Shown: positions 4,066-62,414, counted from the stretch's first letter. The stretch: 64,000 nt of DNA from an uncultured Gammaproteobacteria bacterium (GCA_964610305.1 CAZSVL010000003.1:13122-77121); one strand, 5' to 3'. Numbers and translations: made by a program. Notes: a model not told the origin generated them from the letters alone.

Positions 4066-4223
4066 TAGTATAGAGTATTCAGTATTGAGTATTCAGCGGG
4101 TGCCCGCTTGTCATTCTGAACTTGATTCAGAATCCAGTTAGAAATAGAGCGCGTTTTATATTTCTGCCTGGATCCCGGATCAAGTCCGGGATGACGCTTA
4201 AACGTACTGAATACTCTATACTC
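4066..4223. repeat. GTCAT-family twin-hairpin repeat element (core 4110-4195) nested in longer outer inverted repeats
   Basis: GTCATTCTGAACTTGATTCAGAATCCAG...CTGGATCCCGGATCAAGTCCGGGATGAC, flanked by tagtatagagtattcagta / tactgaatactctatactc. Confidence 0.8.
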
Positions 4224-4227
4224 AAAA

Positions 4228-4907: not shown

Positions 4908-6134
4908 ATGCGCAAGAGAAAATTGTGCACTAAATACGGCGAAATTCAGGTTCCAGCAAAGTCGCTGCACGGAAGCGCTGTGCTGTATTCTGAGCAGACG
5001 GTGGAGATTCTTGCTGGCACAAAAATGCGTGACGGCAAGGTTCTTAAAAAGTCAGTTACACTGCTCCCAGGAACCATCTTCATGCCACGGCTTCACAAGC
5101 CGGAGACAGGAAGGCCGTACTTTGTCTGGCAGATTTACGCTCAAGGAATCTTTGATGCTCTGCGCGGAATTATGCATATTCAGGCTGGCTACGATAGTCA
5201 GTATGAGCAGCGATACGGCCGGATGGGTGAGGTGCAGACCATAGAAGACGTGCGGTCAGCTCTGAACACCATTTTGGGATGGCTTGCCACTTACAGCAGC
5301 CTCTCTGATTTAGAGAAAGATGCGCTTGGTGAGTTTATCTCTGGAAAAACAGAGCTTGTGGGTAATGTTCAGGATGAGCATAAGCGCAGAGCGCTAGAGC
5401 GGATGATTGCCGCAAGCAAAGAAAAAGATTCTTCTGGGAAGTCTAACCCTAGTGCGCGTATGGCGCGCAGTGTTGGTGCCCGTAGAGATCTGCATGAGCG
5501 TCTGTCTCTGATCAGATTCATTGAGCCGCGGATTGGTACGCGCGCAGTTGCTTTGGCAACAGAAGACGCACGGATCCGCAGGATTTACGCGGACGCGTAC
5601 AAAAGATTTAGTGCCATTGAAAACTCAATCGGCAATGCAATTGCTGGTATGGGAGATAGCGCCAAGCGCTTTGCTGTTACGGTGATGGGAATGGTGGAAG
5701 ATCTGCAGACTATCAAGGTTGGACCCTATCCATCGCATGTGCAGAGGATCGTTAAAGATGCTCAGCAGGTTGGTAACTATATTGCAGCAAACCAAAAGAA
5801 GAAGGCACTTGCTGTACGCAAGAGGATCCTGGAGTCTCTGCGTTGCAAGAGAGCTCGCTGGCAGCTAGAGGGTATCCGTACGCCGCTTTCAATTGCAGCG
5901 GCAGGAAAAAAGAAAGATAGAGAAGCGGCTGTTGCGGCGGGGACACACAAGGTTTTTGCTGCAAGGTTGCAGGATTTCTCTGGAAGAATGGCAACCATTG
6001 CGGACGAGGATTTCAGCAAGAAAGTGAGATCCTTTGCGGTGGTGCGTTGTGATAAAGCGGCATCGCTCTTGATGGATCTGGAAGATTTTAGGGGTGCCAA
6101 GACCCTCGTCGGAGAAGCTTGTAACAGACTCTAG
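4908..6134 (+). CDS. Hypothetical protein (408 aa, Arg/Ala-rich, no recognisable domain)
   Basis: Long ORF with strong promoter and RBS. Composition is GC-richer than neighbouring genes. Confidence 0.6.
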   Translation: MRKRKLCTKYGEIQVPAKSLHGSAVLYSEQTVEILAGTKMRDGKVLKKSVTLLPGTIFMPRLHKPETGRPYFVWQIYAQGIFDALRGIMHIQAGYDSQYEQRYGRMGEVQTIEDVRSALNTILGWLATYSSLSDLEKDALGEFISGKTELVGNVQDEHKRRALERMIAASKEKDSSGKSNPSARMARSVGARRDLHERLSLIRFIEPRIGTRAVALATEDARIRRIYADAYKRFSAIENSIGNAIAGMGDSAKRFAVTVMGMVEDLQTIKVGPYPSHVQRIVKDAQQVGNYIAANQKKKALAVRKRILESLRCKRARWQLEGIRTPLSIAAAGKKKDREAAVAAGTHKVFAARLQDFSGRMATIADEDFSKKVRSFAVVRCDKAASLLMDLEDFRGAKTLVGEACNRL

Positions 6135-6434: not shown

Positions 6435-7499
6435 CTATCCTGCAATGAGTTCCTGCTTCTCAACTTCTTCCAGTATCGCTTTCTTAATTTTCGGAATGAG
6501 CTTAGGATTGTCATTTTTCATATACAGCCTTGCTTTCTCCCTTCCCACACCCAAGCGCTCCTCGCCATAGGTGTAGCTGTTGCCGCTTTTTTTAATTACA
6601 CCATAGAGCACGCCGGCATCAAGCAAGTCTCCTGTAATTGAAATACCCTCGTTATACATTATGTTCACAATAGCTGTTCTAAACGGTGGTGCCACTTTAT
6701 TTTTAACAATCTTCACCTTCACTTGGTTGCCCACAATTTTGTCACTTTGTTTTATCTGAGCGCTGCGCCTTACTTCTATTCTAATACTTGAATAAAATTT
6801 AAGCGCGTTTCCTCCCGTGGTGGTCTCAGGATTGCCAAAGAAGACGCCAATTTTGTGCCGTGTTTGGTTTATAAAGATAACCACAGTATTTGTCTTTGCA
6901 ACAATACCCGCAAGTTTTCTGAGGGCTTGGCTCATGAGTCTTGCTTGCAGCCCCATGTGTCGATCCCCCATATCGCCCTCAATTTCCGCCTTGGGAACCA
7001 GTGCTGCAACAGAGTCAACAACAATAACATCAACAGCATTTGATCTCACCAGCGTCTCAACAATTTCCAAGGCTTGCTCACCAGTATCAGGCTGAGAAAT
7101 TAAAAGCTCATCTACATTCACACCAATTTTTTTTGCGTATTCTGGATCAAGCGCATGCTCTGCATCTACAAAAGCAGCCAGACCGCCTATTTTTTGAACC
7201 TCAGAAACAATGTGCTGCGCCAGCGTTGTTTTTCCTGATGCTTCTGGACCAAATACTTCTATTATTCTTCCGCGTGGTACGCCACCAATGCCCAGTGCAA
7301 TATCAATAGAGAGACAACCGGTAGGGATGGCGTCTATTTCAGTTCGTTTGGCCTGGCCGAACTTCATTATAGAGCCATCTCCAAATCTTTGCTTTATCTG
7401 ATCAATAGCGGCCTGCGCTGCCGCGGCTCTTGGGTCGGTCTTTTTGTTCTCCTCTTTCTTTTTCCCCTCCTTGGATTTAGTTTGCGTCTGCTCTGGCAT
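6435..7499 (-). CDS. recA: Recombinase RecA
   Basis: Walker [12 protein letters not shown], the L1/L2 regions and the overall RecA consensus are obvious. Confidence 0.95.
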
Positions 7500-12872: not shown

Positions 12873-13142
12873 ACTCCCTCCCAAGAGTTCGTTTTCAAAC
12901 AAAAACAGTCACAGATCGTCCTCGGTAGCATGGCTGGCGCTTACCTTTTTTGTATATAGGTTTATATGCGACAGGTGCCCCCTCGGACGATCTCTGACTG
13001 CTTTAAAATTGTTAACGTTCTTTGCAACGACGATATCATTATAATACCGCAACTGCACACTATAGCACACTTTTGTCATTTTGTCAAGAGGAGATGCCTA
13101 TAATTTGGCTTATTTTAGCGCGATTTTGCATTTTGCTTCAGG

Positions 13143-13309
13143 GGTTAGGGGTTAGCGTGTAGGGTGTAGTGGTATCACCTTGTCATTCTGAACTTGATTC
13201 AGAATCTAGGAAGAAATTGAGCACGTCTTACTGTTCTAGTGGATCCTGAATCAAGTTCAGGATGATGCTATAGAGATTCTACACCCTACACCCTACGCCC
13301 TAACCACTA
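13143..13309. repeat. GTCAT-family twin-hairpin element (core 13192-13268) nested in ~30-bp outer inverted repeats
   Basis: Outer ggttaggggttagcgtgtagggtgtagtgg / ctacaccctacaccctacgccctaaccactag. Core GTCATTCTGAACTTGATTCAGAATC...GGATCCTGAATCAAGTTCAGGATGATGC. Confidence 0.8.
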
Positions 13310-24910: not shown

Positions 24911-24982
24911 GTCATTGCGAGCGAAGCGAAGCAATCCCGTTGCTAACTTGTTGGGATTGCTTCGCCTCCGGCTCGCAATGAC
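24911..24982. repeat. GTCAT-family long-hairpin repeat (subtype B)
   Basis: GTCATTGCGAGCGAAGCGAAGCAATCCC...GGGATTGCTTCGCCTCCGGCTCGCAATGAC. Confidence 0.8.
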
Positions 24983-25034
24983 AAAAAAGATCGCGCCTGT
25001 TGAAAAAGAGTAGCCCTTTTGATACTCTAAGCGC

Positions 25035-25733
25035 ATGTCAGGTCACTCAAAATGGTCAAAAATTAAGCGACAAAAAGGCGCGGCTGATGCGGCGCGCGGG
25101 AATTTGTTTACCAAACTTTCTAAAGCCATAAGCATCGCAGCGCGTAGCGGCGGTGATCCAGAGATGAATTTCTCTCTGCGCCTTGCTATAGATAAGGCGC
25201 GCGCTTCTAACATGCCTAAAGATAATATAGATAAAGCAATAAGACGCGGCACGGGAGAGGATAAATCCGCCGCGGTTATTGAAGAGCTTATGTATGAGGG
25301 TTTTGGTCCGGGTGGTGTGGGGGTTTTGGTAGAAGTGGCAACAGATAACAGAAACAGATCTGGCGCCGATATAAAGCATTTACTCTCAAAATATGGAGGA
25401 GGCTTGAGTGGGCCGGGAAGCGTAAAATGGCAGTTTGAACAGAAGGGTGTGATTTATTTAAAAGATATGCCAGATGATGATCTGCAGTTAGAGCTAATGG
25501 ACGCGGGAGCTGATGATATAGTCTCTGAGGATGGTGCTATAATTTATACGGCGATTGGGGACTTTAAAAAAGTAATGACAACTTTACAAAACGCGGATTT
25601 GTCACCTGAAGAGTCTGGTTTGGAGTGGGTGGCTAAAGATACTGTGGCGGCTGATGCGGGAAAACTTGAAAAATTTATCGAGAGATTAGAAGAGCACGAT
25701 GATGTTCAAAATGTTTATACGAACGCGCAGTGA
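25035..25733 (+). CDS. yebC: YebC/PmpR-family DNA-binding regulator
   Basis: MSGHSKWSKIKRQKG... the canonical YebC N-terminus. Confidence 0.9.
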   Translation: MSGHSKWSKIKRQKGAADAARGNLFTKLSKAISIAARSGGDPEMNFSLRLAIDKARASNMPKDNIDKAIRRGTGEDKSAAVIEELMYEGFGPGGVGVLVEVATDNRNRSGADIKHLLSKYGGGLSGPGSVKWQFEQKGVIYLKDMPDDDLQLELMDAGADDIVSEDGAIIYTAIGDFKKVMTTLQNADLSPEESGLEWVAKDTVAADAGKLEKFIERLEEHDDVQNVYTNAQ

Positions 25734-25754
25734 CGGCTGCATGTAAGAGAGTCT

Positions 25755-26175
25755 GCTGTAGGCTTTAGGCTGTATGCTGTAAGATTGTTCTATGGAGAAT
25801 TTTAAAAAATTGGAGGTTTGGCAGCTTGCGCGAGGGTTGGTTGGGCAAGTCTATAGAATAACGGCGCATTTTCCTGCGGAGGAGCGATTTGGTTTAGTAT
25901 CTCAGATGAGGCGTGCTGCAATATCGGTTATGGCAAATATTGCTGAAGGATCAAAACGACAGACTGTCAAAGACAGAACCCATTTTCATGTAATAGCAGA
26001 CACATCTTTGGAGGAGCTTAAATGCTACTTTGTGGTATCATACGATTTAGACTATATAGGCAGGCAGGAGGGCGAAGTCATGACGCAGATGGCACGAAAA
26101 ATTGGAGGAAAACTAACAAGATTAACGCAAAGTCTCAAGCCGCGGGCATAAAGCATACAGCCTAAAGCCTACAGC
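25755..26175 (+). mobile_element. Four-helix-bundle-protein cassette flanked by perfect 24-bp inverted repeats (IVS-like element)
   Basis: gctgtaggctttaggctgtatgct at 25755-25778 and its exact reverse complement at 26152-26175 bracket the ORF. Confidence 0.6.
25792..26151 (+). CDS. Four helix bundle protein (the family encoded in 23S rRNA intervening sequences)
   Basis: LEVWQLARGLVGQVYRITAHFPAEERFGLVSQMRRAAISVMANIAEG matches the TIGR02436-type pattern. Confidence 0.8.
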   Translation: MENFKKLEVWQLARGLVGQVYRITAHFPAEERFGLVSQMRRAAISVMANIAEGSKRQTVKDRTHFHVIADTSLEELKCYFVVSYDLDYIGRQEGEVMTQMARKIGGKLTRLTQSLKPRA

Positions 26176-26184
26176 ATTATTCTT

Positions 26185-26670
26185 ATGTCAATCATCCTAG
26201 GAGTAGACCCAGGTTTTGGAAGAACAGGTTTTGGAGTAATCAAAGTTGAAGGAAATGGCAGGCACGTTTTAGACGTGGGGTGCATTGAAACGGCCAAAAG
26301 TCTTGCTCATGAGAATCGGCTTTTGCAGATATATCAGGATGTAACTAATTTGATAAAACAACACGACGTAAAAAAAGTAGCCATAGAGCGGCTTTTTTTT
26401 AATAAAAACGTCACCACGGCTTTGGGGGTGGGAGAGGCGCGCGGCGTGGTGCTTTTGGCCGCGGCTGAAAATGGCGCAACGCTTTTTGAGGCTACGCCAT
26501 CACAGGTAAAAATGGCCATCACAGGACACGGCGGTGCCACCAAGGCGCAGGTGCAGCACATGGTACAAGTAGTTTTGCAGCTAAAACAAAAACCGCGCCC
26601 AGACGACGCAGCAGATGCCCTAGCTATTGCGTACTGCTGTGCTCAGGCGGCTTGGCAGGATTCTCTTTAA
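26185..26670 (+). CDS. ruvC: Crossover junction endodeoxyribonuclease RuvC
   Basis: ILGVDPGFGRTGFGVI...AIERLFF...DAADALAIAY. Classic yebC-ruvC synteny. Confidence 0.9.
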   Translation: MSIILGVDPGFGRTGFGVIKVEGNGRHVLDVGCIETAKSLAHENRLLQIYQDVTNLIKQHDVKKVAIERLFFNKNVTTALGVGEARGVVLLAAAENGATLFEATPSQVKMAITGHGGATKAQVQHMVQVVLQLKQKPRPDDAADALAIAYCCAQAAWQDSL

Positions 26671-27088
26671 AGTAGAGTATTCCAGTGCATAGCGCTACAA
26701 TGGCAATGGCTGCCTGAGAGGTGAGGCACAAAATACACGCGGTATAGAGAACACCAAATTCTATATAGGTAAGGTAGCCTTGAAATGCCAGACCAAGAAG
26801 AGAGGCAGCAAAAGGATATTTAATGTCCTTTTTTAGTTTGTCGTTTGTAAGCAGCAGCGCTAGCAGACCATAGCCTAATACCCCAACAGCCGCTACAGGG
26901 ATGCCGGCAATTTCAGAATATATGCTTTTGTTTACGGTGGAGCAGTTAAATTGGCTACTGATATCGCAGAACGTTTCTGTTTCAGTCCCATAGTGATGAG
27001 AAAGGGCGTAAGCTGAAACGACAAAGCCCATAACAGCCGCAATCAACGCTACCGTTCTAAGTAATTTTGCGGTATTTGGTTTGATCAT
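26624..27088 (-). CDS. Vitamin K epoxide reductase (VKOR) family membrane protein
   Basis: Four TM helices, loop Cys pair (CDISSQFNC), active-site CILC in the last helix. Confidence 0.7.
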   Translation of the reverse strand: MIKPNTAKLLRTVALIAAVMGFVVSAYALSHHYGTETETFCDISSQFNCSTVNKSIYSEIAGIPVAAVGVLGYGLLALLLTNDKLKKDIKYPFAASLLGLAFQGYLTYIEFGVLYTACILCLTSQAAIAIVALCTGILYFKENPAKPPEHSSTQ

Positions 27089-27090
27089 AA

Positions 27091-27537
27091 TTATTCAGCG
27101 GCAGCAGGGGTGCTACTTGCTTGTTCTGGCAACTCTTCAACAGCCTCTGCGTTTGGATCATTATAGGTGCCGTCAAGTTCGCATCCACTTTTTATTGCTA
27201 GCTGACGCAAAGATTGCAAGCCGGTTCTTCTGGAGCCGTCTGCAAATTCCCACGTTGGGTAAGATTCTATGCCCGCCGCTGTACACTCTTGCGTCTGCCC
27301 GCTTCCACCTGGTAGAGCGCACTCTTCATAGTTAACGTATTCAAAAGAGTTTCCAAATTCCTTCTTTTGTTCTTGGCAATTTGGACACCAATACGCGCCG
27401 TATTCTTTTACGCCGTGCTCCGTAAGGCACTGGGCAAAAGCATCGTAAGGCCCGGGTTTATTTTTTTGAAAAAAGATGAAGCCCACAAAGGCTATCAGAA
27501 TTATTACTACTCCTGTCCACAGTTGTTTGTCTGTCAT
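27091..27537 (-). CDS. Membrane-anchored thioredoxin-like protein (WCPNC motif), probable VKOR redox partner
   Basis: N-terminal TM helix then ...GAYWCPNCQEQK. Adjacent to VKOR in the same orientation. Confidence 0.65.
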   Translation of the reverse strand: MTDKQLWTGVVIILIAFVGFIFFQKNKPGPYDAFAQCLTEHGVKEYGAYWCPNCQEQKKEFGNSFEYVNYEECALPGGSGQTQECTAAGIESYPTWEFADGSRRTGLQSLRQLAIKSGCELDGTYNDPNAEAVEELPEQASSTPAAAE

Positions 27538-27540: not shown

Positions 27541-28857
27541 TTATGTGTTAACCTCCGTTGATAGATTAGCATTTTTTTTGTAGGAAATAAAGATGAGTGA
27601 AAGCAGAAGCCAAAAAATAACGGCAAGATCATTTTTAAAATAAGGGACATCCACCAGACCGTGAATTAAAATAGTCAACACTGCCGCAAGAAGCGGATAG
27701 TTTGGCGTCCGCATAATAGCCCAATAAAAAAGCAGGATAAAGGCAAGGACGCCAAGTAGTCCCAGCTCAACCCAAAAGTTAAGCAGTATATTGTGCGGGT
27801 ACTCAAACACCTCAATCCATTTGTCTATCCTATACCTATATATAGACTCCTTATAACTAGAGAGCCCAGTTCCTAAGAGTGGATGGTCGGAGATAAGTTC
27901 ACTAGCTTCCGCCCACATATCCAGCCGCAATCCGCCGCTGTAGTCTGCAAAAATAAGCTCTTGCTTTATGTTGGATAATCCAGGCGTAAGCATGATAGCG
28001 GCAGTAATTCCCAAGCCCGTTGCTCCAACAAAGAATCTCGTTTTTTTATGTATGACCCCAATTATAAAACCGGCTCCCGCAAGTGCTACAAGTGCGCCCG
28101 TTGTTTTTGCCCAGATGATGGCAAGAAAGCTTGCTGAAGTAACAAGTAACAAGTAACAAGTAACAAGTACGTCCTTCCACCTTTTTCTTGTGTGTGAGAA
28201 GTTTTTTATGGTTCTTGTTGCCTCGTCAATAAAAAGGGGTATGAGCGGTGCCATAAAAAGCCCAATGGCATTAGGAAATCCCCAAACGCTGGTAACGCGT
28301 CTTGTTTGCTCTGCTGCCCAATACGGATTAGGAATCCACACCCCCGTGAATTTTTGGTAGATGGCAATGATTGCAGTAGCTAAGACCGAAAGTGATAATG
28401 AAAAGATAATTGCGGGGCGATCAGTTTTTTTAAATGTAGTTATAAAAATGAAGAATAATGCTACCGGTTCTATAATATACGCTTTCCAAAGTCCGGCAGC
28501 AGCTCTTGTATCTGGCGCAATGATGAGCGATAGGGTTCCGGCTATAAGTAGCAGGGCGATCCCAAGCGCTAGCACCCATTCTTGTGTCATTCTGAGCGAA
28601 GCGAAGAATCCCGTCAAGCGACTAACTTGCTTTTTAAACGGGATTCTTCGCCTTTGGCTCAGAATGACTGCTTTTATCAGCCACATGACTGCAACAATCC
28701 AAATCATTACTTCAAGCAATGTGCTCGGCAAAGGCCCAATACTAAACCTAATAAGATACACAGGAAGCAACGCAATTAAAACAAGAAGCGCCCACCTAAG
28801 GCGGACGAGCGCGAGTGCTGCAAAGCCGATTGTAAAAGCTATAACAAGGCCGGTCAT
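27541..28857 (-). CDS. O-antigen ligase / Wzy-like polytopic membrane protein
   Basis: 438 aa, >10 TM helices, Wzy_C-like central loop. Contains an in-frame repeat element and a heptanucleotide tandem repeat. Confidence 0.6.
   Translation of the reverse strand: MTGLVIAFTIGFAALALVRLRWALLVLIALLPVYLIRFSIGPLPSTLLEVMIWIVAVMWLIKAVILSQRRRIPFKKQVSRLTGFFASLRMTQEWVLALGIALLLIAGTLSLIIAPDTRAAAGLWKAYIIEPVALFFIFITTFKKTDRPAIIFSLSLSVLATAIIAIYQKFTGVWIPNPYWAAEQTRRVTSVWGFPNAIGLFMAPLIPLFIDEATRTIKNFSHTRKRWKDVLVTCYLLLVTSASFLAIIWAKTTGALVALAGAGFIIGVIHKKTRFFVGATGLGITAAIMLTPGLSNIKQELIFADYSGGLRLDMWAEASELISDHPLLGTGLSSYKESIYRYRIDKWIEVFEYPHNILLNFWVELGLLGVLAFILLFYWAIMRTPNYPLLAAVLTILIHGLVDVPYFKNDLAVIFWLLLSLIFISYKKNANLSTEVNT
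28139..28171. repeat. Heptanucleotide tandem repeat (AGTAACA)x4 plus a partial copy, inside the Wzy-like CDS
   Basis: agtaacaagtaacaagtaacaagtaacaagtac. Confidence 0.9.
28586..28668. repeat. GTCAT-family long-hairpin repeat (subtype B) lying in-frame inside the CDS 27541-28857
   Basis: GTCATTCTGAGCGAAGCGAAGAATCCCGT...ACGGGATTCTTCGCCTTTGGCTCAGAATGAC. Translated as ...KAVILSQRRRIPFKKQVSRLTGFFASLRMTQ... Confidence 0.8.
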
Positions 28858-28858
28858 A

Positions 28859-30304
28859 TCAACGAGTAGAGATCAAAAGCCTAAGATCTCTATACGATAT
28901 ACCTTTTACGGCTATCATGGCAAGAGTGTAGACCGCTCCTCCGATAAAAACTAAAAGTACAACATGCAGATCGCGGATAAGCCACAGAGATCCTGCCATT
29001 AAGCCACTTGCCGCCACTGATTTAAAAAGTGGCGTGAGCGTTATTCTAGCGCGCGTTACTTTTTTAACATAAAGCCACAAAAGCGCGCCAGCAAGCAGCT
29101 CAGAGAAAACCGTCATCCACGCAGCGCCCATATAGCCATAGCGTGGAATGAAGATAAGATAGCCAACAAGCGTGATAATGGCAGTAAGAAGATAGATCCA
29201 AATAGTTTTTCTTTGGTGGTTGATGGCAACAATGGTGTGACCAAAGAGCGCTCCTAAAAATCCTCCCATAAGAGCGATAAGTAAGACTTGGACAATCGGG
29301 CCGGATGCAATAAACTCTTCTCCTGCGATGAGTTTCATAATAGGAGATGCTAAAAGTGCCCCGCCAACAAGAACAGGAATAGCTACCACAGACAGGGCAG
29401 AGAATGATCTGCTCACCAGAGATGAGAAATTTGCTTTATCGGTACTGGTCCAGCTCTTAGCAAGTAGCGGGACCATCAAGCCCATAAAGATAATGGGTAT
29501 GGCGGTGGTAACATCCATTATTCTGTATGCAGCTCCATACAGCCCCACTTCTGTTTGAGGTCTCACCAAAGATAAAATGAAAACGTCTGCTCTTAAATAG
29601 ATAAGATTAAAAGCAATGGAGATGGCAATCGGCCAGCTTTTTTTGAAAATAATTGACCAGATGTTTTTTTCAAAAGAAAATCCAAGCGGGACAATGCGAT
29701 GCGCTCTTGTCGCAAGCACTATGGTCTGGGCGATGTTTCCAATCACCACCGCAGCCATTACCGGCATAAAGCCAAAGTCTTTGTAGACCACCAAGAAAAC
29801 ACCGGCAAACAGTGCGGCTCTCTGCGCCACTTCAGCTAGGCCAATCCAGTGAGCTTTAAGATGTTTTTGAAAAATTCCCGTGAGGATTTGATTTTCTGCA
29901 ATGAGGAAAAATGCTACAGAGGTAAGGACAACTGCCCATTTAATTTCTGTGGTGTACGGAAAAAGCCAAATGAGTGCTGCGGCTAATCCGTACGCTACGG
30001 CAGCAGTGAGGGTTCTAAATCCAAGCAGGTTACGGACTATGGTTTTTTCAGAATAATCCTTAAGCTCGCCGAGCATTTGCCCGGTAACAATAACCAAACC
30101 AAAATCTATTAAAATGCCAACAATCTGCAAAAATGCCACCGCCGTAACATACCAACCAAATTGCTCTTGCCCTAAATAGCGGGTCATCATGGCAATGGTA
30201 GCAATACCCAAAAACGTCCCGACGATTTTTCCGGAGAAATGAGTAAAGGTATTGCGCACTACGCTAGCGGTTGCCATGCACAGAGCATAGCACAGAGCGC
30301 GCAA
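28859..30304 (-). CDS. Polysaccharide/O-antigen flippase (Wzx, MOP superfamily)
   Basis: 481 aa, ~12-14 TM helices, typical Wzx topology. Adjacent to the Wzy-like gene. Confidence 0.7.
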   Translation of the reverse strand: MRALCYALCMATASVVRNTFTHFSGKIVGTFLGIATIAMMTRYLGQEQFGWYVTAVAFLQIVGILIDFGLVIVTGQMLGELKDYSEKTIVRNLLGFRTLTAAVAYGLAAALIWLFPYTTEIKWAVVLTSVAFFLIAENQILTGIFQKHLKAHWIGLAEVAQRAALFAGVFLVVYKDFGFMPVMAAVVIGNIAQTIVLATRAHRIVPLGFSFEKNIWSIIFKKSWPIAISIAFNLIYLRADVFILSLVRPQTEVGLYGAAYRIMDVTTAIPIIFMGLMVPLLAKSWTSTDKANFSSLVSRSFSALSVVAIPVLVGGALLASPIMKLIAGEEFIASGPIVQVLLIALMGGFLGALFGHTIVAINHQRKTIWIYLLTAIITLVGYLIFIPRYGYMGAAWMTVFSELLAGALLWLYVKKVTRARITLTPLFKSVAASGLMAGSLWLIRDLHVVLLVFIGGAVYTLAMIAVKGISYRDLRLLISTR

Positions 30305-30392
30305 ACTGAATACCTTGACAAATGGTGGTGCCTATGCTAACCTCCTAGTAACTTCAAAGAGCATCTTAAGCTTTGGCCGTGGTGGTTAGGGA

Positions 30393-31949
30393 ATGGGATG
30401 CAAAGGAGGAGGTATGGGGCTTTCCCCAGAGCAGAAAGAACAGGTCGTCAACGGCGGCCCCGGCAGATGGCAAGTTCCGGTATCGCGTTTGACGAAAGGA
30501 CTCAAGAGGCGTCTGAGTGAAGCAGAATCGGTGTACGATGTTCTGTTTGCGCCCAGCCGCGCCGTAGAAAAGGCCTGGGATCAAGCGCTTGATGTGGTTG
30601 CGGATGCAAAGAAGGAAGAGCTTGGGCTCGCGGCCGCGGGATTGCGCGGCGACCTCTTGTCGCTGCAAACGATTGATTCACAAGGAGAGCACATCAACGT
30701 GTACCTTGTTCCGGTCACGCACGTAGTTAATACCAATGCTTTGATGGCCAAATTTAATGAATACGGGCTAGACTTTTTGCCAGAAGACTCGGCAAAATAT
30801 CTTTTTGAGCAGTTGCCTGACGGTCACATGGCTCAGGGACGCCGATGGCTTGTATATTCCGGTGACCAAACGCTTACGTACATTACAAGGGATCTTGTCC
30901 AGGTACTTGCTGATGCTTATCCAGCGCATGAGATGCTTGGTAGGCCTGATTGGTATGTTCTGGGCTACCGCAATGAGGAGCGACCAGAAGTAAAGACTTC
31001 TTGGTTTGTGCCTTTTGGCGATACATTCCCGCAGCAGCTCCTAGAGATGCGTGTCGTGAGTGTGTCAGATATGCTTTATCCTGAAACAGACGATTTTCGC
31101 GACGTCGCGCTTACCAATGAGTGGACGCGCGGCGAGCGCAAGCATCTAGAAGCTTTTATTGCCCATGTTGACCTGACGGAAGACATGTTTGAGAATCCCG
31201 TGTGCGCAATGGCCGACGATGAGGTTGTGCAATACGTGAAGATGATTTCTGGAATGCCGCATTTTTTTACGCAGCAATTGGGCTCAGAGGGTTTCGTAGT
31301 TGAACGTTGGCTTCATTACCGTATTGTTGATCGTCCCGCGCTGTACCCCATTTGGGTTGATGGCAGGCAGCTGGAAGTGGGTGTTTTTGAAAGAGAACGC
31401 ATTGTGCCACCGGCTGTGGATGGCTACACCTACACACCCGCAACGCATGAGCATATTGCTGCTTTCTATGCTCAGCATTTGAGTCTTGTGAAGACGCATC
31501 TTAACTTCTTGATGTGCGGGGCCGCTGATTTGGATGCCGGGCGAGCTAATGGCGTGCTGGCTGTTGGCACTGCTTTTGCTGGTGGAGAGGAGACAGCAAG
31601 GCTGTTTGTAGCTGAATCCGGCTTTGATATCGATAGAATTGGTTTGGTTTTGTATGTGGTTGGGGAAAAGACAGAACCAGATGAGGAGGCAGTACAGGAG
31701 CAGGCCGTTGAAGAATCTGAGGCTAGCTGGGTGGTCAAAGCACCTCTGTGCAAAAAGTGCGGAGCATCCTTTTTGGAGCTAACGGCACTTATGACAGCAC
31801 AACACAACTTTAAGGCAATTGAGTGCTTAGATTGTCTGGATATTGCTCACGACGTCCAAAAGATCGTTAGAGCTGGGCAAGCAAAAGGTGCTTCTTGGGC
31901 TATCCCTGATGGCGGCATGAGTAGTAATCAGGAGAAACGCAAAGGTTAG
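30393..31949 (+). CDS. Hypothetical protein (518 aa) with C-terminal CxxC...CxxC zinc-ribbon; GC-rich
   Basis: No recognisable domain. C-terminal CKKCGASF...CLDCLD. Composition is markedly GC-richer than flanking genes. Confidence 0.55.
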   Translation: MGCKGGGMGLSPEQKEQVVNGGPGRWQVPVSRLTKGLKRRLSEAESVYDVLFAPSRAVEKAWDQALDVVADAKKEELGLAAAGLRGDLLSLQTIDSQGEHINVYLVPVTHVVNTNALMAKFNEYGLDFLPEDSAKYLFEQLPDGHMAQGRRWLVYSGDQTLTYITRDLVQVLADAYPAHEMLGRPDWYVLGYRNEERPEVKTSWFVPFGDTFPQQLLEMRVVSVSDMLYPETDDFRDVALTNEWTRGERKHLEAFIAHVDLTEDMFENPVCAMADDEVVQYVKMISGMPHFFTQQLGSEGFVVERWLHYRIVDRPALYPIWVDGRQLEVGVFERERIVPPAVDGYTYTPATHEHIAAFYAQHLSLVKTHLNFLMCGAADLDAGRANGVLAVGTAFAGGEETARLFVAESGFDIDRIGLVLYVVGEKTEPDEEAVQEQAVEESEASWVVKAPLCKKCGASFLELTALMTAQHNFKAIECLDCLDIAHDVQKIVRAGQAKGASWAIPDGGMSSNQEKRKG

Positions 31950-32104
31950 AACAATAGAGAGTGCACTGACCGCTTAACCAGGCGTAATAATTTATAGATT
32001 CTGTGCAGGAGAAATCCTGCTTTTTTATTTTTTACATTTTAGAAAGATGGTATAATGCGGCTAGCTAGGCTTACCTGGCGGTTTAAGATACGGCGCAGAG
32101 TTAT

Positions 32105-34222
32105 ATGAGAATGGAGAGGCACAATGCATCGGCTTTGCGAGAGCAGCGACAAGCGGCTCGTAGCAAACGGCGCAAGCACGTAGGATTTTTCTCTAGTATT
32201 TTTATTTCTGGCATTTTGGTGGTGGTAAGCGCTAGCCTTTTGCGCATTGGGGTAGACGGAAGCGTTCCTGAGCTGCCTAGCTCTCATCTGGATCACGTGG
32301 TACAAAACGATGGGCCCCGCTATGACCTTTCTAAATTTAAGCTAGAGATGGCTAATTTAGCAAAGTCAATTTTTGGCGTAGAAGATGTCCATGCCGCAGG
32401 ATACGCGGCAAGAGTTATAGCTCAGCCAGCTCCATTGTCTCTAAAGCCAGGCGAGAAAAGTGAGATTGTTGTAAAGCTTGAGAACACCGGCTCTCTGAGA
32501 TGGCGCACGCCCGCAACAGGATCACGTTATGCCAGCCTTTATACTTACGCGCCAAAATATCACCTGAGTAGGCTAGAGGATAAAAGATGGCACAGAAGAG
32601 ATCAGCCTGGAGTTTTGCAGGCGCAGACAGAGGTGGGAGAGACAGGGATCATAAAAATTCCGATCACTGCTCCGCTTGAGCCGGGTGTATACAAGGATAC
32701 TTTTCAGATGGCCATAGAGGACACGGCTTGGGTGAGTGGTGGAGGTGTTAAAGTGGTAGTGAACGTAGAAGATGTGCCGGTGGATATTGTTGTTCCTAAA
32801 GTAGTGTCATTGCGATCGCCGCAGAGCGAGAAGCAATCCCGTCATAAGGAGGACCAGTTGCAAAGCGACGAGATCGCCACACCTCTTTCAGAGGTTCGCG
32901 ATGACGAAGCTATAGATGACGTGGTCCATAAAGCCTTACTGTTGGTGCGCTCGCACAAACGAATCCGCAAACCAGGCGGAACGGATGTGCTCATGCGATT
33001 TGGTTTTAAAAACACCGGAGAGAGCTCGTGGTTTGAGCGAGGCCTCAAGACCGGGCAGGTGGCCATAGCCGCACAAAAAAAAGATGGCAGTTTTGCTCAC
33101 CAAAGTTGGCTTTCAAAAAATGATGTGGTGAAATTAGCCGCCGGCACCGTGGCGCCCGGAGACACAGAATTTTTTACGTTTTCCGTAAAAACGCCGGCCA
33201 CCAAAGGTGAATATGATATGAACTTGCATTTGGTGGTTGACGGCAGGCCGGTAGAAGGTGGCATCATTAGCCTGCCCGTTTTTGTAACCAGCAACGCAAA
33301 GAGCAGTAGTCAGCCTGTTTCTTTTGAAGGAGAAGTTGAGCTCTTAGATGAGCCGATTATCAGAGTGGGACTTTTTAAAACAGAAGAGCCCGTGGAGTTT
33401 GTATCTTCTTACGAGTATGTGGTTAAAGATGTTAATGGAAAAGCGCTGCATATTATCCCAAAGAATACACAATCAGTTATACATTATAAAAACGGTTCGT
33501 ACATTTTTTACTCAAAAGGAAAGACGCTTAAAGGATCGCATCACTACCGGCTGGAGCCAAAAAACGCCGGCGTCGATCCCTACTTTACTATAAGTAATCA
33601 TGAGGAGCGTCCTAAGTGGAATCCCGGCCTTAATTACAATATTTTCAGGGGTACATTTGAGCTGCGCTACTCAGAAAAGAATGAAAAGGTGTGGGTCATA
33701 AATGAGCTTTCTATGGAGCCGTATTTGTGGGGGCTAGCTGAGGTAAGCAATAATACACCAGAGGAATTTCAAAAGGCAATGGCCGTGGCAGAGAGAACAT
33801 ATGCATATGTGCAGCTACGGGCGGGGACAAAACATGCGGACAGGAATTTTCATGTAAGCGCTTCTCAAGGGGATCAAGTATACAGAGGAAAAAATAGAGA
33901 GCCAAGCTTTCCTAACGTGGTAGATGCGGTAAAAGAAACACTTGGGCAGATGGTGACCTATAATAATGACGCAGTAGTGACGCCATATTTTGCTCGCTCA
34001 AACGGAAAGACAAAATCATACAAAAGTGTATGGGGAGGAGCTGAAAAACCGTGGCTTGTGCCCGTAAAAACGGGGTATGATAGCGGGAAGAGCAAATGGG
34101 GACATGGCGTGGGTATGAGTCAGCGCGATGCTACTCATAGGGCAGATAAAGAAGATATAGAATATAAGGAATTGCTTGCTTACTACTACACAGACACAAA
34201 GGTCAGAAAAGTATATAAATAG
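32105..34222 (+). CDS. SpoIID/LytB domain-containing protein with N-terminal TM anchor and repeated beta-sandwich domains
   Basis: C-terminal MEPYLWGLAEV...AVAERTYAYVQL...GHGVGMSQRDA matches SpoIID/LytB. Confidence 0.8.
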   Translation: MRMERHNASALREQRQAARSKRRKHVGFFSSIFISGILVVVSASLLRIGVDGSVPELPSSHLDHVVQNDGPRYDLSKFKLEMANLAKSIFGVEDVHAAGYAARVIAQPAPLSLKPGEKSEIVVKLENTGSLRWRTPATGSRYASLYTYAPKYHLSRLEDKRWHRRDQPGVLQAQTEVGETGIIKIPITAPLEPGVYKDTFQMAIEDTAWVSGGGVKVVVNVEDVPVDIVVPKVVSLRSPQSEKQSRHKEDQLQSDEIATPLSEVRDDEAIDDVVHKALLLVRSHKRIRKPGGTDVLMRFGFKNTGESSWFERGLKTGQVAIAAQKKDGSFAHQSWLSKNDVVKLAAGTVAPGDTEFFTFSVKTPATKGEYDMNLHLVVDGRPVEGGIISLPVFVTSNAKSSSQPVSFEGEVELLDEPIIRVGLFKTEEPVEFVSSYEYVVKDVNGKALHIIPKNTQSVIHYKNGSYIFYSKGKTLKGSHHYRLEPKNAGVDPYFTISNHEERPKWNPGLNYNIFRGTFELRYSEKNEKVWVINELSMEPYLWGLAEVSNNTPEEFQKAMAVAERTYAYVQLRAGTKHADRNFHVSASQGDQVYRGKNREPSFPNVVDAVKETLGQMVTYNNDAVVTPYFARSNGKTKSYKSVWGGAEKPWLVPVKTGYDSGKSKWGHGVGMSQRDATHRADKEDIEYKELLAYYYTDTKVRKVYK

Positions 34223-58192: not shown

Positions 58193-58222
58193 GAAAATGC
58201 CCCAGGTCTTACGCTGGGGCGG

Positions 58223-58585
58223 GGTGGAGGCGCCGGGAGTCGAACCCGGGTCCAGAAAGGTTGTTCATCTGCGTCTACGTGTGTATTCCTTGCATGGTTG
58301 CCTACGCTGCTTTGCCCAAGGACAGGCGGCTGCGCAGCCGGTTCATTGCTGTGTTTAAGACATGCTCCGCAATTCCATTAGAGCAGTACCGAGCCTACAT
58401 AAGTTTCCCTAATCCCGCCTATAGGCGAGCGAGCTTTGGGGTCGCATGCTGCGTACTAGGCAGCGAGCGCGACGGACTCAGCGTCAGTATTGGCGTCTGA
58501 GTTGCGCCCGGGGGATCAAAGGGTCCCAGACATCCCTTACACGCAGCAGGTAGCGTCCGCTCCCTGTCGAAACCAGTTCGCCCCC
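58223..58585 (-). ncRNA. ssrA: tmRNA (SsrA), tag peptide ANTDAESVALAA
   Basis: 5' GGGGGCGAACTGGTTTCGACAGGGA. tRNA-like 3' end GGGTTCGACTCCCGGCGCCTCCACC. In-frame GCC AAT ACT GAC GCT GAG TCC GTC GCG CTC GCT GCC TAG. Confidence 0.85.
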
Positions 58586-60514: not shown

Positions 60515-60670
60515 TGGAAGGGGTAGGATTCGATGAGCAAATGAGTGAGTGTAATAAACATGCTCGCATGCTTATTACCGAGCGAATGCTGCTCGGCCCG
60601 AAGGGCACCTACGAAGACGGTGTCGTCGGATTTACAATCCGGTGCCTTTAACCAACTCGGCCACCCTTCC
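60515..60670 (-). tRNA. tRNA-Tyr (anticodon GTA), type II, carrying a 73-nt structured insertion in the T-loop between nt 54 and 55 (60534-60606)
   Basis: GGAAGGG...CCGGA-TTGTAAA-TCCGA...GTAGG-T[GCCCTTCGGGCCGAGCAGCATTCGCTCGGTAATAAGCATGCGAGCATGTTTATTACACTCACTCATTTGCTCA]TCGAAT-CCTAC-CCCTTCC-A. Confidence 0.6.
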
Positions 60671-60677
60671 ATTAAAG

Positions 60678-60752
60678 TATCCCCAAGGGGATTTGAACCC
60701 CTGCCTCCGGATTGAGAGTCCGGTGTCCTGAGCCTGACTAGACGATGGGGAC
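60678..60752 (-). tRNA. tRNA-Glu (anticodon CTC)
   Basis: GTCCCCATCGTCTAG...CCGGA-CTCTCAA-TCCGG...GGGG-TTCAAAT-CCCC. Confidence 0.75.
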
Positions 60753-60756
60753 GGGG

Positions 60757-60830
60757 CGGTGATGACGAGACTTGAACTCGCAACCTTCGGCCTGACAAGC
60801 CGCTACACTAGCCAATTGTGTTACATCACC
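60757..60830 (-). tRNA. tRNA-Asp (anticodon GTC)
   Basis: Acceptor GGTGATG/CATCACC-G, anticodon loop TTGTCAG. Confidence 0.7.
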
Positions 60831-60868
60831 TGAAGGCTTGCCTGGCGTAGCCGAAGGCGAAGCCTGGG

Positions 60869-60941
60869 TGGAGCCGACAGGAATCGAACCTGCGACATCC
60901 GGCGTGCAAAGCCGGCGCTCTCCCAACTGAGCTACAGCCCC
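60869..60941 (-). tRNA. tRNA-Ala (anticodon TGC), G3-U70; second copy
   Basis: GGGGCTG-TA-GCTC-AGTTGGGA-GAGC-G-CCGGC-TTTGCAC-GCCGG...CGGCTCC-A. Confidence 0.8.
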
Positions 60942-60948
60942 AAATAGG

Positions 60949-61037
60949 AGGAGGGGGTGGGATTTGAACCCACGGGACTCACTGGTGAGCCCAACGGGTT
61001 AGCAACCCGACGCCTTCAGCCACTCGGCCACCCCTCC
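60949..61037 (-). tRNA. tRNA-Ser (anticodon GCT), type II
   Basis: Acceptor GGAGGGG/CCCCTCC, 3-bp D-stem, anticodon loop TTGCTAA, long variable arm GGGCTCACCAGTGAGTCC. Confidence 0.75.
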
Positions 61038-61041
61038 ATAA

Positions 61042-61116
61042 TGCGCCCGGCGGGATTTGAACCCGCAACCACTGGATCCGGAGTCCAGCGCTCTACATCC
61101 ATTGAGCTACGGGCGT
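61042..61116 (-). tRNA. tRNA-Arg (anticodon CCG)
   Basis: ACGCCCG-TA-GCTC-AATGGATGTA-GAGC-G-CTGGA-CTCCGGA-TCCAG...GCGGG-TTCAAAT-CCCGC-CGGGCGC-A (A1-C72 mismatch). Confidence 0.7.
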
Positions 61117-61126
61117 TCAATGCTGA

Positions 61127-61181
61127 GGGCCGACGCTTTGGTCGCCCCCCCGACCCCTTCGGGCGTCGGGGCTACGGACGC
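61127..61181 (-). repeat. 44-nt twin-hairpin element (61127-61170) with an upstream pseudo-acceptor GCGTCCG-TAGC (61171-61181), duplicating the tRNA-Arg(CCG) 5' end
   Basis: RNA sense: GCGTCCG TAGC [CCCGACGCCCGAAGGGGTCGGGGGGGCGACCAAAGCGTCGGCCC] TCAGCATTGA ACGCCCGTAGC... Confidence 0.6.
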
Positions 61182-61186
61182 TTAAG

Positions 61187-61259
61187 TACGCCGTGAGGGA
61201 ATTGAACCCCCGACCCATGGATTAAAAGTCCAGTGCTCTACCTACTGAGCTAACAGCGC
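61187..61259 (-). tRNA. tRNA-Lys (anticodon TTT)
   Basis: GCGCTGT-TA-GCTC-AGTAGGTA-GAGC-A-CTGGA-CTTTTAA-TCCAT...GGGGG-TTCAATT-CCCTC-ACGGCGT-A. Confidence 0.7.
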
Positions 61260-61265
61260 ATAAAA

Positions 61266-61338
61266 GGTGAATGACGGGACTTGAACCCGCGACCTCTGGA
61301 GCCACAATCCAGCGCTCTCCCATCTGAGCTACATTCAC
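61266..61338 (-). tRNA. tRNA-His (anticodon GTG), C73
   Basis: GTGAATG-TA-GCTC...CTGGA-TTGTGGC-TCCAG...GCGGG-TTCAAGT-CCCGT-CATTCAC-C. Confidence 0.75.
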
Positions 61339-61340
61339 AG

Positions 61341-61413
61341 TGCCAGAGACAAGAATTGAACTTGTGACTCAGGGATTTTCAATCCCCAGCTCTACCTACT
61401 GAGCTACCCTGGC
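61341..61413 (-). tRNA. tRNA-Phe (anticodon GAA), intact, A37
   Basis: GCCAGGG-TA-GCTC-AGTAGGTA-GAGC-T-GGGGA-TTGAAAA-TCCCT-GAGTC-ACAAG-TTCAATT-CTTGT-CTCTGGC-A. Confidence 0.8.
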
Positions 61414-61415
61414 AT

Positions 61416-61489
61416 AGAACGGAGGGGGACTCGAACCCCCGAACATCCGATTTGCAGTCGGAGCCCTTAGCCAACTCGGGTACCCGTTC
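61416..61489 (-). tRNA. tRNA-Cys (anticodon GCA), U73; second copy
   Basis: GAACGGG...TCCGA-CTGCAAA-TCGGA-TGTTC-GGGGG-TTCGAGT-CCCCC-TCCGTTC-T. Confidence 0.75.
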
Positions 61490-61496
61490 AGAGATT

Positions 61497-61530
61497 TGTC
61501 TCCCTTCGGGAGATCTCCCGAAGGGAGACA
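61497..61530. repeat. 34-bp perfect palindrome (twin hairpin) upstream of tRNA-Cys; homologous to 1419-1452
   Basis: tgtctcccttcgggagatctcccgaagggagaca. Confidence 0.85.
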
Positions 61531-61567
61531 GTCCTGTACCTAGCCAATTCGGACACTCATCCAGAAG

Positions 61568-61713
61568 TGCGCACACTTGGACTTGATCGGTAAACGAGTG
61601 AGTGGAGTAGGCATGCTTGCATGTCTACTCCCGAGCAAGTGCGACCGAGCCCGAAGGGTACCAAGGACCCTCTGGGTGTAAACCAGATGCTCTCCCAACT
61701 GAGCTATGCACGC
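61568..61713 (-). tRNA. tRNA-Val (anticodon TAC) carrying a 73-nt structured insertion in the T-loop between nt 54 and 55 (61587-61659)
   Basis: GCGTGCA-TA-GCTC-AGTTGGGA-GAGC-A-TCTGG-TTTACAC-CCAGA-GGGTC-CTTGG-T[ACCCTTCGGGCTCGGTCGCACTTGCTCGGGAGTAGACATGCAAGCATGCCTACTCCACTCACTCGTTTACCGA]TCAAGT-CCAAG-TGTGCGC-A. Confidence 0.6.
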
Positions 61714-61717
61714 GCAG

Positions 61718-61799
61718 TAGGTCGGGGGAGACTTGAACTCCCACGTCTAATGACACCAGATTTTGAATCTGGCGCGTCTACCGGTTCCGCCACCGACCC
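61718..61799 (-). tRNA. tRNA-Leu (anticodon CAA), type II
   Basis: GGGTCGG-TG-GCG...CCAGA-TTCAAAA-TCTGG-TGTCATTAGACGT-GGGAG-TTCAAGT-CTCCC-CCGACCT-A. Confidence 0.75.
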
Positions 61800-61871
61800 G
61801 TCTTTGTAATATGCTTCTATCAGAAAGTGAAGATTCACCGTCTGAATAAAAGGGGGAAGAGACTTCCCCGG

Positions 61872-61988
61872 AGCGGTAAGCCGGCCTCGAACCGACGACC
61901 CTCTGCTTGGAAGGCAGACGCTCTACCAACTGAGGACCGACGTTTCAGTCGGTCCCCCGACCCCTTTAGGCGTCGGGGCTATTACCGT
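61872..61988 (-). tRNA. tRNA-Gly (anticodon TCC) copy interrupted in the D-stem (between nt 11 and 12) by a 44-nt twin-hairpin element (61934-61977)
   Basis: ACGGTAA-TA-GC[CCCGACGCCTAAAGGGGTCGGGGGACCGACTGAAACGTCGGTCC]TC-AGTTGGTA-GAGC-G-TCTGC-CTTCCAA-GCAGA-GGGTC-GTCGG-TTCGAGG-CCGGC-TTACCGC-T. Confidence 0.55.
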
Positions 61989-61998
61989 AAATTTAAAG

Positions 61999-62071
61999 AG
62001 CGGATGATCGGGCTTGAACCGATGACTATCTGGTTGGAAGCCAGATGCTCTCCCAACTGAGCTACATCCGC
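61999..62071 (-). tRNA. tRNA-Gly (anticodon TCC), intact array copy
   Basis: GCGGATG-TA-GCTC-AGTTGGGA-GAGC-A-TCTGG-CTTCCAA-CCAGA-TAGTC-ATCGG-TTCAAGC-CCGAT-CATCCGC-T. Confidence 0.8.
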
Positions 62072-62075
62072 AAAG

Positions 62076-62148
62076 TACGCCGTGGAGGATTCGAACCTCC
62101 GACCGATGGATTAAGAGTCCACTGCTCTACCAACTGAGCTAACAGCGC
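62076..62148 (-). tRNA. tRNA-Lys (anticodon CTT)
   Basis: GCGCTGT-TA-GCTC-AGTTGGTA-GAGC-A-GTGGA-CTCTTAA-TCCAT-CGGTC-GGAGG-TTCGAAT-CCTCC-ACGGCGT-A. Confidence 0.75.
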
Positions 62149-62153
62149 AAAAG

Positions 62154-62224
62154 CTCGGGAACTAGGATTCGAACCTAGATGAACTGATCCAGAGTCAGCC
62201 GTCCTGCCGTTAGACGATTCCCGA
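62154..62224 (-). tRNA. tRNA-Gln (anticodon CTG)
   Basis: TCGGGAA-TC-GTCT-AACGGCA-GGAC-G-GCTGA-CTCTGGA-TCAGT...CTAGG-TTCGAAT-CCTAG-TTCCCGA-G. Confidence 0.75.
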
Positions 62225-62234
62225 ATGGTTAGTT

Positions 62235-62309: not shown

Positions 62310-62317
62310 GAGAGAGG

Positions 62318-62410: not shown

Positions 62411-62414
62411 AGAG

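Follow-up and report, generated by a model that had tools for sequence, protein, structure and literature searches.

Among the features of the window (the whole 64,000-nt stretch of DNA analysed here), the one of main interest is a tandem repeat lying inside a gene for a WaaL-like membrane protein, hereafter the host gene (Table 1). The host protein contains a Wzy_C domain at residues 241–374, which lie downstream of the repeat, and its score of 74.4 bits is well above the curated Pfam cut-off of 31.7. An AlphaFold2 model built with 106 homologues has a pLDDT of 93.3 and shows a WaaL-like polytopic fold. Its sole significant match among PDB structures is the O-antigen ligase WaaL (7TPG; Foldseek E = 1.5e-5, TM 0.58–0.63). 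A sequence search of the protein against solved structures gave no match, and its NCBIfam matches are sub-threshold only. Positions invariant across the 106 homologues include R187, H355 and the block G400–L411 (the HGLVDVPYFKNDL region). The protein may act as a ligase, a polymerase or a protein O-glycosylase.

A flippase gene lies directly upstream of the host gene on the same strand, and it is this adjacency that sets the host gene in a glycan pathway. The sequence-only reading had spoken of a surface-glycan gene; the Wzy_C domain, the WaaL fold and the adjacent MOP-family flippase together support that description. Downstream of the host gene are genes for a thioredoxin-like protein and a VKOR homologue, followed by RuvC, a 23S_rRNA_IVP gene and YebC. 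The exact host protein occurs once in the databases, which makes the organism close to a singleton; the closest relative (L086) is 63% identical and has the same gene order as the window. Homologues of the host gene are annotated as Patescibacteria (Magasanik-, Uhr- and Falkowbacteria), and the array-bearing genome is that of a tiny uncultured bacterium of this group.

Table 1. Genes and repeats of the window discussed in the text; positions are counted from the first nucleotide of the window.
Feature	Position	Strand	Basis or remarks
WaaL-like / Wzy_C-family membrane glycan ligase gene, 438 aa (host gene)	27541–28857	(-)	ORF, Pfam, model, fold match
Perfect heptanucleotide array (focal array)	28137–28169	(-)	33 nt, 4.7 units; residues 230–240
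Near-perfect palindrome GTCATTCTGAGCGAAGCGAAGAATCCCGT...ACGGGATTCTTCGC..TCAGAATGAC	28586–28668	.	inverted repeats I7 and I8
MOP/Wzx-type polysaccharide flippase gene	28859–30304	(-)	Pfam Polysacc_synt E = 2.8e-19; NCBIfam flippase families
Imperfect heptamer array, GCTGTAG-type	25754–25781	(+)	left arm of stem
Inverted copy of array 25754–25781	26149–26176	(+)	right arm of stem
Imperfect heptamer array, AGGGGTT/AGGGTGT	13140–13169	(+)	left outer arm, nested palindromic element
Heptamer array, CTACACC-type	13279–13308	(+)	right outer arm, 87% complementary to 13140–13169
Heptamer array, AGTATTG/AGTATAG	4067–4096	(+)	left outer arm, second nested palindromic element; partner 4205–4225

Tandem Repeats Finder, run on the window, reports the focal array as AAGTAAC at period 7, with 4.7 copies, 100% matches, zero indels and a score of 66. 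On the given strand the array and its flanks read ...GCTG (AAGTAAC)x4 AAGTA CGTCC..., and on the coding strand the array is TACTT(GTTACTT)x4. It is read in frame within the host ORF, its codons GTA CTT GTT ACT TGT TAC TTG TTA CTT GTT ACT encoding VLVTCYLLLVT. In the confident AlphaFold2 model, these residues open the helix 227–249, directly after a K/R-rich loop. A repeat of four units plus a partial copy within a Wzy-like coding sequence had been noticed from the sequence alone. The copy number is borne out by the 4.7 perfect units, and the location by the match of the ORF to Pfam Wzy_C (E = 1.1e-20). The array is thus where it was said to be, but the span given for it, 28139–28171, is shifted by 1–2 nt relative to the Tandem Repeats Finder result; the phase in which it was written, AGTAACA, begins at 28138.

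When unit sizes of 1 to 12 are scanned, no other perfect repeat in the 64 kb comes close to the focal array in length. The next period-7 run is 18 nt long, and every other period reaches 21 nt at most. A 21-nt probe, allowed up to 3 mismatches, found no match in 100 dinucleotide-preserving shuffles of the window, and for the 26 consecutive lag-7 self-matches the analytic expectation is about 1e-10 per window. The array is therefore far beyond chance. It is also uninterrupted and lies within a reading frame, one of the two settings, along with promoters, expected for the simple-sequence tracts of contingency loci.

All other heptamer arrays in the window are imperfect and form the arms of inverted repeats. 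The nested elements at 4067–4225 and 13140–13308 have different heptamer units and a common GTCATTCTGA... core. Further along, a 28-nt stem with 96% complementarity (25754–25781 with 26149–26176) encloses the 23S_rRNA_IVP/bAvd-like gene. The focal array, by contrast, is unpartnered within the 64 kb, in inverted and in direct orientation alike. Nor is any RNA or DNA structure predicted for it (z = +0.5 and +0.8), and we reject such a structure on that ground. Rfam matched no family at any of the arrays. With a bAvd-like gene only 2 kb from the host gene, we considered whether the latter might be the target of a diversity-generating retroelement. Such a target should have near it a template/variable repeat pair of about 100 nt. 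There is no long direct repeat of this kind between 26500 and 30500, and this candidate was rejected; the bAvd match is below cut-off, and the protein fits 23S_rRNA_IVP.

The host gene carries one more insert. The palindrome at 28586–28668 sits in frame in variable loop 1, a low-confidence loop in the model, and homologues carry similar palindromic inserts in the same loops. Together, these inserts indicate that the loops of the host protein are unusually tolerant of insertions. Flippase genes carry palindromic inserts as well. Rickettsia palindromic elements are palindromic mobile elements that insert in frame into genes, and the palindrome and its counterparts in homologues resemble them in being tolerated in frame within protein loops. 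The likeness extends to this neighboring insert only; the focal repeat is a tandem array.

What would slippage do to the host gene? Loss or gain of one or two units is computed to give products of 254, 265, 272 or 261 aa, all of which stop soon after the array and lack the entire Wzy_C domain. Loss or gain of three units preserves the frame (431 or 445 aa), and the change amounts to only 7 residues fewer or more in a membrane helix. The prediction that a 7-bp slip would frameshift the gene accordingly holds for changes of one or two units, which shift the frame and abolish the product, but not for changes of three. At 4.7 units the gene is intact (ON). Because a slip of one or two units must inactivate the gene and can revert, the array works like a contingency locus in this respect. 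And because the unit is 7 nt long, single steps should pass via a frameshifted allele, save for compensating pairs or triples of steps.

Comparison with relatives bears on whether the tracts slip. Arrays that share their register and a GTTA/TTAC core occupy exactly the focal position in six lineages: the window (GTTACTT, perfect), L005 (GTTAATT, with one GTTACTT unit), L028 (GTTATTG), L085 (TTACYAW), L021 (CTTACTA, perfect) and L012. In the majority of the remaining homologues, the score here is at background level. The focal segment aligns gap-free to the homologous residues of relatives, and those that are free of arrays keep a CY(Y/W)L-type motif at this position. At the focal site, unit identity is 90% within an array versus 68% between lineages at the same unit position. 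Similar turnover is apparent elsewhere in the gene. L016 and L018, whose proteins are 84% identical, have arrays of equal length in the C-terminal hot spot with units homogenized differently, GCCA.. occupying both left units of one and GTTA.. those of the other. L158, L003 and L022 share an AAGGCAR array, and in the related L135 the array at this site is made of TTTCGAA. For perfect arrays to exist at such old sites, unit turnover must be faster than point mutation, and it follows that slippage acts on these tracts. As judged from these sequence comparisons, the homogenization of units within lineages indicates active slippage on an evolutionary time scale.

We surveyed the gene family in two independent sets of loci, one of 80 loci with homologues from GTDB species representatives and one of 80 JGI metagenome loci. 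Among the GTDB loci, 14 of the 16 perfect heptamer runs of at least three copies lie in the homologous gene (110 kb), and the other two in 775 kb of flanking DNA. The JGI loci contain 32 high-quality arrays in the gene versus 6 outside. Combined and made non-redundant, the two sets comprise 147 genes; 32 of these contain a total of 46 arrays, each some 30 nt long, a density of 22.7 arrays per 100 kb. The density is 14-fold lower in adjacent flippase genes (1.6 per 100 kb; p = 6e-8) and about 12-fold lower in other flanking DNA (1.8 per 100 kb; p = 1e-20). The flippase is a fair control, since it too is polytopic and belongs to the same pathway; both of its arrays fall at the far 5′ end of ORFs delimited from stop to stop. 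Shuffling of synonymous codons leaves a mean of 1.05 arrays versus the 46 observed, and we conclude from their removal by this procedure that the arrays are features of the DNA.

Within the gene, units of 7 nt dominate and those of 8 nt are fewer, with hardly any of 5, 6, 9 or 10 nt. The arrays do not favor its 5′ end; they cluster in a small number of hot spots at query residues 1–11, 78–98, 139–161, 216–240, 275–291 and 378–391, which correspond to loops and helix ends in the AlphaFold2 model. The hot spots border K/R-rich loops and, by the positive-inside rule, are presumably cytoplasmic. Among the long repeats of flanking DNA, too, heptamers come first, and a heptamer excess is already known from other bacteria (PMC4692102); for both reasons, the 7-nt unit points to a genome-level mutational bias and is no proof of selection for switching. 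Arrays also occur in the genes for LeuRS (two, one of them perfect), glutamate dehydrogenase and a pseudouridine synthase. Switching off any of these genes cannot be useful, and since essential genes carry arrays, an array does not in itself imply switching.

The lengths of the arrays are unexpectedly uniform. In a collection of 63 arrays, the number of units ranges from 3.6 to 5.3, with half of the arrays in a sharp mode at 4.3–4.4; perfect-run lengths form a separate mode at 30–31 nt, with none at 24, 25 or 28 nt. Non-coding arrays are also about 30 nt long, and for that reason selection on reading frame cannot by itself set this length. Two simple accounts of the arrays were rejected. If the arrays generally arose as +21-nt (7-aa) insertions, this should be visible in the net length difference from the nearest homologue, but that distribution is broad with a mode of 0, and at the focal site the gap-free alignment disposes of the idea directly. 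If rounds of insertion and excision had amplified a target-site duplication, perfect runs should have their mode at 28 nt, a length at which there are none. Within any one genome, units have cores in common, for example YTAC or AAATT. In L021, a CTACTTA array of 4.3 perfect units is present twice in one gene, and in L134 a 30-nt GC-rich palindrome is inserted mid-array. About 24% of the arrays (15/63) have an inverted partner within 600 nt.

We looked for alleles differing in unit number and for OFF alleles. Pairs of genes at least 99.5% identical show no unit-number difference at their arrays, and neither do the array-holding clusters formed at 90% protein identity. Apparent length differences were traced to start-codon calls (P0122), contig ends and a 40-bp deletion, and that between P0134 and P0036 to a recombination boundary. 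None of the 160 retrieved homologues is an OFF allele due to an array. All are intact, a result that is weak because retrieval favors intact genes. The only split allele found results from the 40-bp deletion, which lies in loop 1 and involves no array. For the window's own allele, an exact search of JGI metagenome contigs with the left flank plus two units gave no match, and neither did an exact look-up of the host protein on contigs.

Run SRR8146441 contributes two Logan contigs that match the window at 100% identity, one over 24912–27107 and the other over 28140–32835. The latter (L173) stops inside the array, at ...GAC GTACTT GTTACTT GTTACTT GTTACTT GTTA. Logan assemblies are built at k = 31, with singleton k-mers dropped and each 31-mer kept once (PMC12424806). 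We therefore simulated the ends of contigs in a k = 31 graph under different alleles of the array. The 33-nt array is traversed without a break; alleles one or two units shorter end the contig 4 nt earlier; and an array of at least 40 nt, alone or mixed with the 33-nt allele, ends it at the exact base observed. With a longer allele, the periodic 31-mers make up a cycle of 7 nodes, composed of a 3-node and a 4-node unitig. A SNP in the base that follows stops the contig at this point too. Two of the three other ends of these contigs lie in REP-like repeats, which suggests that breaks in this assembly mostly reflect branching of the graph and, thus, that the periodic 31-mer very probably has two contexts in SRR8146441. 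Going by the simulation, a longer allele (at least 40 nt) would be the most likely cause of the break in L173, at roughly even odds, and the break is thus an indirect sign of heterogeneity at the array. It could also stem from a second locus bearing this array, from a SNP or from a gap in coverage.

Heptanucleotide repeats are known to mediate phase variation in other bacteria. In E. coli K1, an intragenic (AAGACTC)n tract in neuO, carried by the prophage CUS-3, governs phase variation of capsule O-acetylation; the tract is 5′-terminal, its number of units varies among genomes from 3 to 53, it is OFF in 66% of them, and its switching has been measured (PMC13001214). The focal array is like that of neuO in that its unit is a heptanucleotide and it lies within the coding region of a surface-glycan gene, whose product is full-length in one of three frames, and the two can be likened in mechanism, which for neuO is strand slippage. 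It differs in lying mid-gene (codon 230), in having 4.7 units, in showing no ON/OFF polymorphism, and in belonging to a different gene family in a different phylum. Across the family, copy number is 3.6–5.3, whereas a NeuO-type tract has many variable units at the 5′ end.

Haemophilus influenzae provides a second comparison. Heptanucleotide repeats occur in the promoters of hmw1A and hmw2A, with 13–38 copies in the hmw tracts, and an (AATTTTG)14 tract inside hmw1a has an observed frameshift (PMC2651432). The focal array passes the threshold of at least three units used for detection in that survey, and in this it is like these accepted mediators of phase variation. The H. influenzae tracts, however, serve adhesin genes in a host-adapted pathogen with many contingency loci, and the window has a single perfect repeat of this kind. 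A third comparison is with heptamer excess in general. Heptamers are over-represented in bacteria, which has been tentatively linked to the footprint of the polymerase, and examples include cyanobacterial heptanucleotide tandem repeats and the GGGAATC/GGGGATT repeats of Xanthomonas and Nostoc (PMC4692102). The genome-wide 7-nt excess and the inverted, stem-forming pairs among these repeats are reminiscent of the window's arrays at 4067, 13140 and 25754. The published repeats, though, are intergenic with one unit per genome, whereas here units vary by site and arrays are concentrated in one gene family. The focal array in particular is intragenic, and its unit differs from those of other arrays.

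Our conclusion is that the focal array is a heptanucleotide microsatellite, prone to slippage and kept in frame in a WaaL-like gene. That it is a real, population-relevant ON/OFF switch of the ligase gene is a reading to which we give a probability of about 0.5. The array would have been born and maintained by slippage and held in frame at 4.7 units, as a member of a lineage-wide class of heptamer arrays of about 30 nt that is concentrated in the WaaL-like gene family. Slipped-strand mispairing would change the number of units from time to time, and the result would be a low-copy, probably low-frequency and reversible ON/OFF alternation of the ligase and of whatever glycan is attached. A low-frequency switch is plausible; adaptive phase variation is unproven, and the repeat may persist only through the tolerance of the gene, with no selection for switching. 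The sequence-only reading had described the site as the classic architecture of a contingency locus. In favor of that description are the frameshift logic, the glycan gene, the roughly 12-fold enrichment, the signs of slippage and the place at which the Logan contig breaks off. On the other side, neither direct polymorphism in unit number nor an OFF allele was seen at any array, the 4.7 units compare with 13–53 in proven heptanucleotide switches, whose tracts differ widely among genomes, and essential genes and intergenic hairpin elements likewise contain arrays. The array is accordingly a candidate for the class of contingency loci and not an established member.

It is also possible, if less likely, that the array is a neutral by-product, an effectively stable in-frame relic of near-constant length with no regulatory role. 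A bias of bacterial replication toward heptamer slippage throughout the genome would now and then generate an array, which would survive only if in frame within a tolerant segment, and the WaaL-like gene would offer such segments in its unusually insertion-tolerant cytoplasmic loops and helix starts. This would account for the dominance of heptamers outside the gene, in keeping with their known over-representation (PMC4692102), and for the arrays of essential genes, and it sits well with in-frame palindromic inserts in the same loops and with hot spots that border K/R-rich, presumably cytoplasmic loops. The tight copy number of 4–5 and the lack of length variation between near-identical assemblies likewise fit a stable relic. 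Harder to reconcile with it is the flippase, which is polytopic and also accepts palindromic inserts, yet has 14-fold fewer arrays. Moreover, perfect arrays homogenized by lineage at an old shared site need turnover faster than point mutation, and the Logan contig stops at the very base predicted for a longer allele. We consider it improbable that the array is instead an arm left over from a small repeat element, or that it arose through ectopic conversion among arrays, with local slippage playing no part and any function residing at the level of the element, for example as an RNA stem or processing site. Elements of this kind do exist, as the three in the window with heptamer arrays for arms and the 15 of 63 arrays with inverted partners attest, and further points in favor are the duplicated array of L021, the mid-array palindrome of L134, the shared unit cores and a length of about 30 nt that is alike in coding and non-coding DNA. 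But the focal array itself lacks both a partner in the 64 kb and a predicted structure, it aligns to relatives without a gap, and the register and GTTA/TTAC core shared by six lineages fit descent plus local homogenization.

The periodicity could, in principle, have arisen by chance or from the protein, as a by-product of the hydrophobic CYLLLV helix, and the retention of the CY(Y/W)L-type motif by array-free relatives is what this would predict. Of the roughly 3,500 ways to encode CYLLLV synonymously, however, just one has perfect periodicity, and the shuffles of synonymous codons (1.05 versus 46) and of the window (0 matches in 100) tell against either origin. We regard this explanation as close to negligible, and its protein-level form as effectively refuted by the synonymous-codon shuffling. 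A more speculative idea is that arrays of about 30 nt are written, or copied from site to site, by a lineage-specific process that deals in blocks of fixed length, and are placed or kept by preference in the WaaL-like genes of Patescibacteria. Several observations leave room for it: the mode at 30–31 nt, the equal length of non-coding arrays, replacement of arrays with no net change in length, identical arrays at two sites in a single gene, arrays as palindrome arms, and the 12–14-fold enrichment. Even so, we think it quite improbable.

The literature searched yielded neither an account of phase variation mediated by repeats in Patescibacteria (the candidate phyla radiation) nor a description of this class of arrays for the group. 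Patescibacteria live attached to other cells, and the cell surface is central to their biology. If the arrays are stable relics, then a non-triplet repeat in a glycan gene is insufficient grounds for calling a contingency locus in these genomes. If the fixed-block process is real, it would amount to a dedicated means of switching or remodeling a surface-glycan ligase in minimal episymbionts. The arrays also raise a mechanistic question, namely why the units are 7 nt and why the arrays are about 30 nt long. And if the focal array does act as a switch, reversible loss of the WaaL-like ligase would affect attachment to the host and sensitivity to phage.

Heptamer arrays are found in the window at places other than the WaaL-like ligase gene. 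Two nested palindromic elements, neither of which matches an Rfam family, have a common inner core (GTCATTCTGAACTTGATTCAGAATC ... GGATCC.G.ATCAAGT.C.GGATGA). Heptamer arrays form the outer inverted arms of both, built from AGTATTC units in one element and GGGTGTA units in the other. Arms of the same kind, 28 nt long and 96% complementary, make up the inverted repeat around a 23S_rRNA_IVP/bAvd-like gene. This cassette looks like an insertion, since the syntenic relative L086 carries a NUDIX gene in its place between RuvC and YebC. Arrays also lie in frame in other genes of related loci, including two in a putative leucyl-tRNA synthetase gene, one of them perfect with 4.6 units.

Features of the window and of related loci (L-numbers); enzyme identities are our readings of the translations
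Feature	Location	Strand	Remark
Nested palindromic element 1	window 4067-4225		
Nested palindromic element 2	window 13140-13308		
23S_rRNA_IVP/bAvd-like gene	window 25792-26151		within inverted repeat spanning 25754-26176
518-aa ORF	window 30393-31949	+	divergent from flippase
Group I intron	window 45617-45837		
tmRNA gene	window 58222-58585		
tRNA cluster	window 60515-63956	-	
In-frame heptamer array	L009 11743-11772		leucyl-tRNA synthetase
In-frame heptamer array	L009 12833-12864		leucyl-tRNA synthetase
In-frame heptamer array	L021 13125-13152		glutamate dehydrogenase
In-frame heptamer array	L062 8172-8202		pseudouridine synthase

Among the other features of the window, the 518-aa ORF has no match in Pfam; L086 has ORFs in a similar position, 537 and 587 aa long, that carry no annotation. 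The window also has more than 20 tRNA genes packed closely together on the minus strand, the tmRNA gene and the group I intron, which is separated from a tRNA gene by 81 nt.

REP-like palindromes of a GTCATT(C/G)... family occur at 28586-28668 and near 24912 and 32800-32840. The first interrupts loop 1 of the ligase gene without disturbing its reading frame; the other two coincide with ends of the Logan assembly contigs that match the window. Related in-frame inserts are seen in homologues, in loops of the ligase and the flippase alike, encoding peptides such as RVEESNAMRFLHA, HSERSEESR and PPLTLRGG. At the second hot spot for arrays in the ligase family, the L134 gene (79% identical to that of L062) has an AATTTTC array that, compared with L062, is interrupted mid-way by a GC-rich palindrome (CCGTCTCGCTCTCGGCGAGCCGAGGCGGAC). 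This insert, at 30 nt, equals in size the heptamer arrays and the 10-aa indels of other relatives. A palindrome, GCTCGGCCGAGC, also lies within the 40-bp deletion that distinguishes two otherwise identical assemblies (L081 700-900 versus L082 1681-1860) and splits the WaaL-like gene in one of them. At hot spot 1, therefore, an OFF allele exists in which heptamers are not involved.

Across all loci, the lengths of perfect period-7 runs show a distinct second mode of 30-31 nt, and runs of 24, 25 or 28 nt are absent. Non-coding heptamer arrays have this same length; none of the explanations that we tried accounts for this. Finally, the WaaL-like gene of L021 contains a perfect CTACTTA array of 4.3 units twice, once at the N-terminal helix and once at the focal site (5970-5999 and 6612-6641), and L028 displays a weaker form of this pattern. 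The pattern suggests that arrays are copied from one another.
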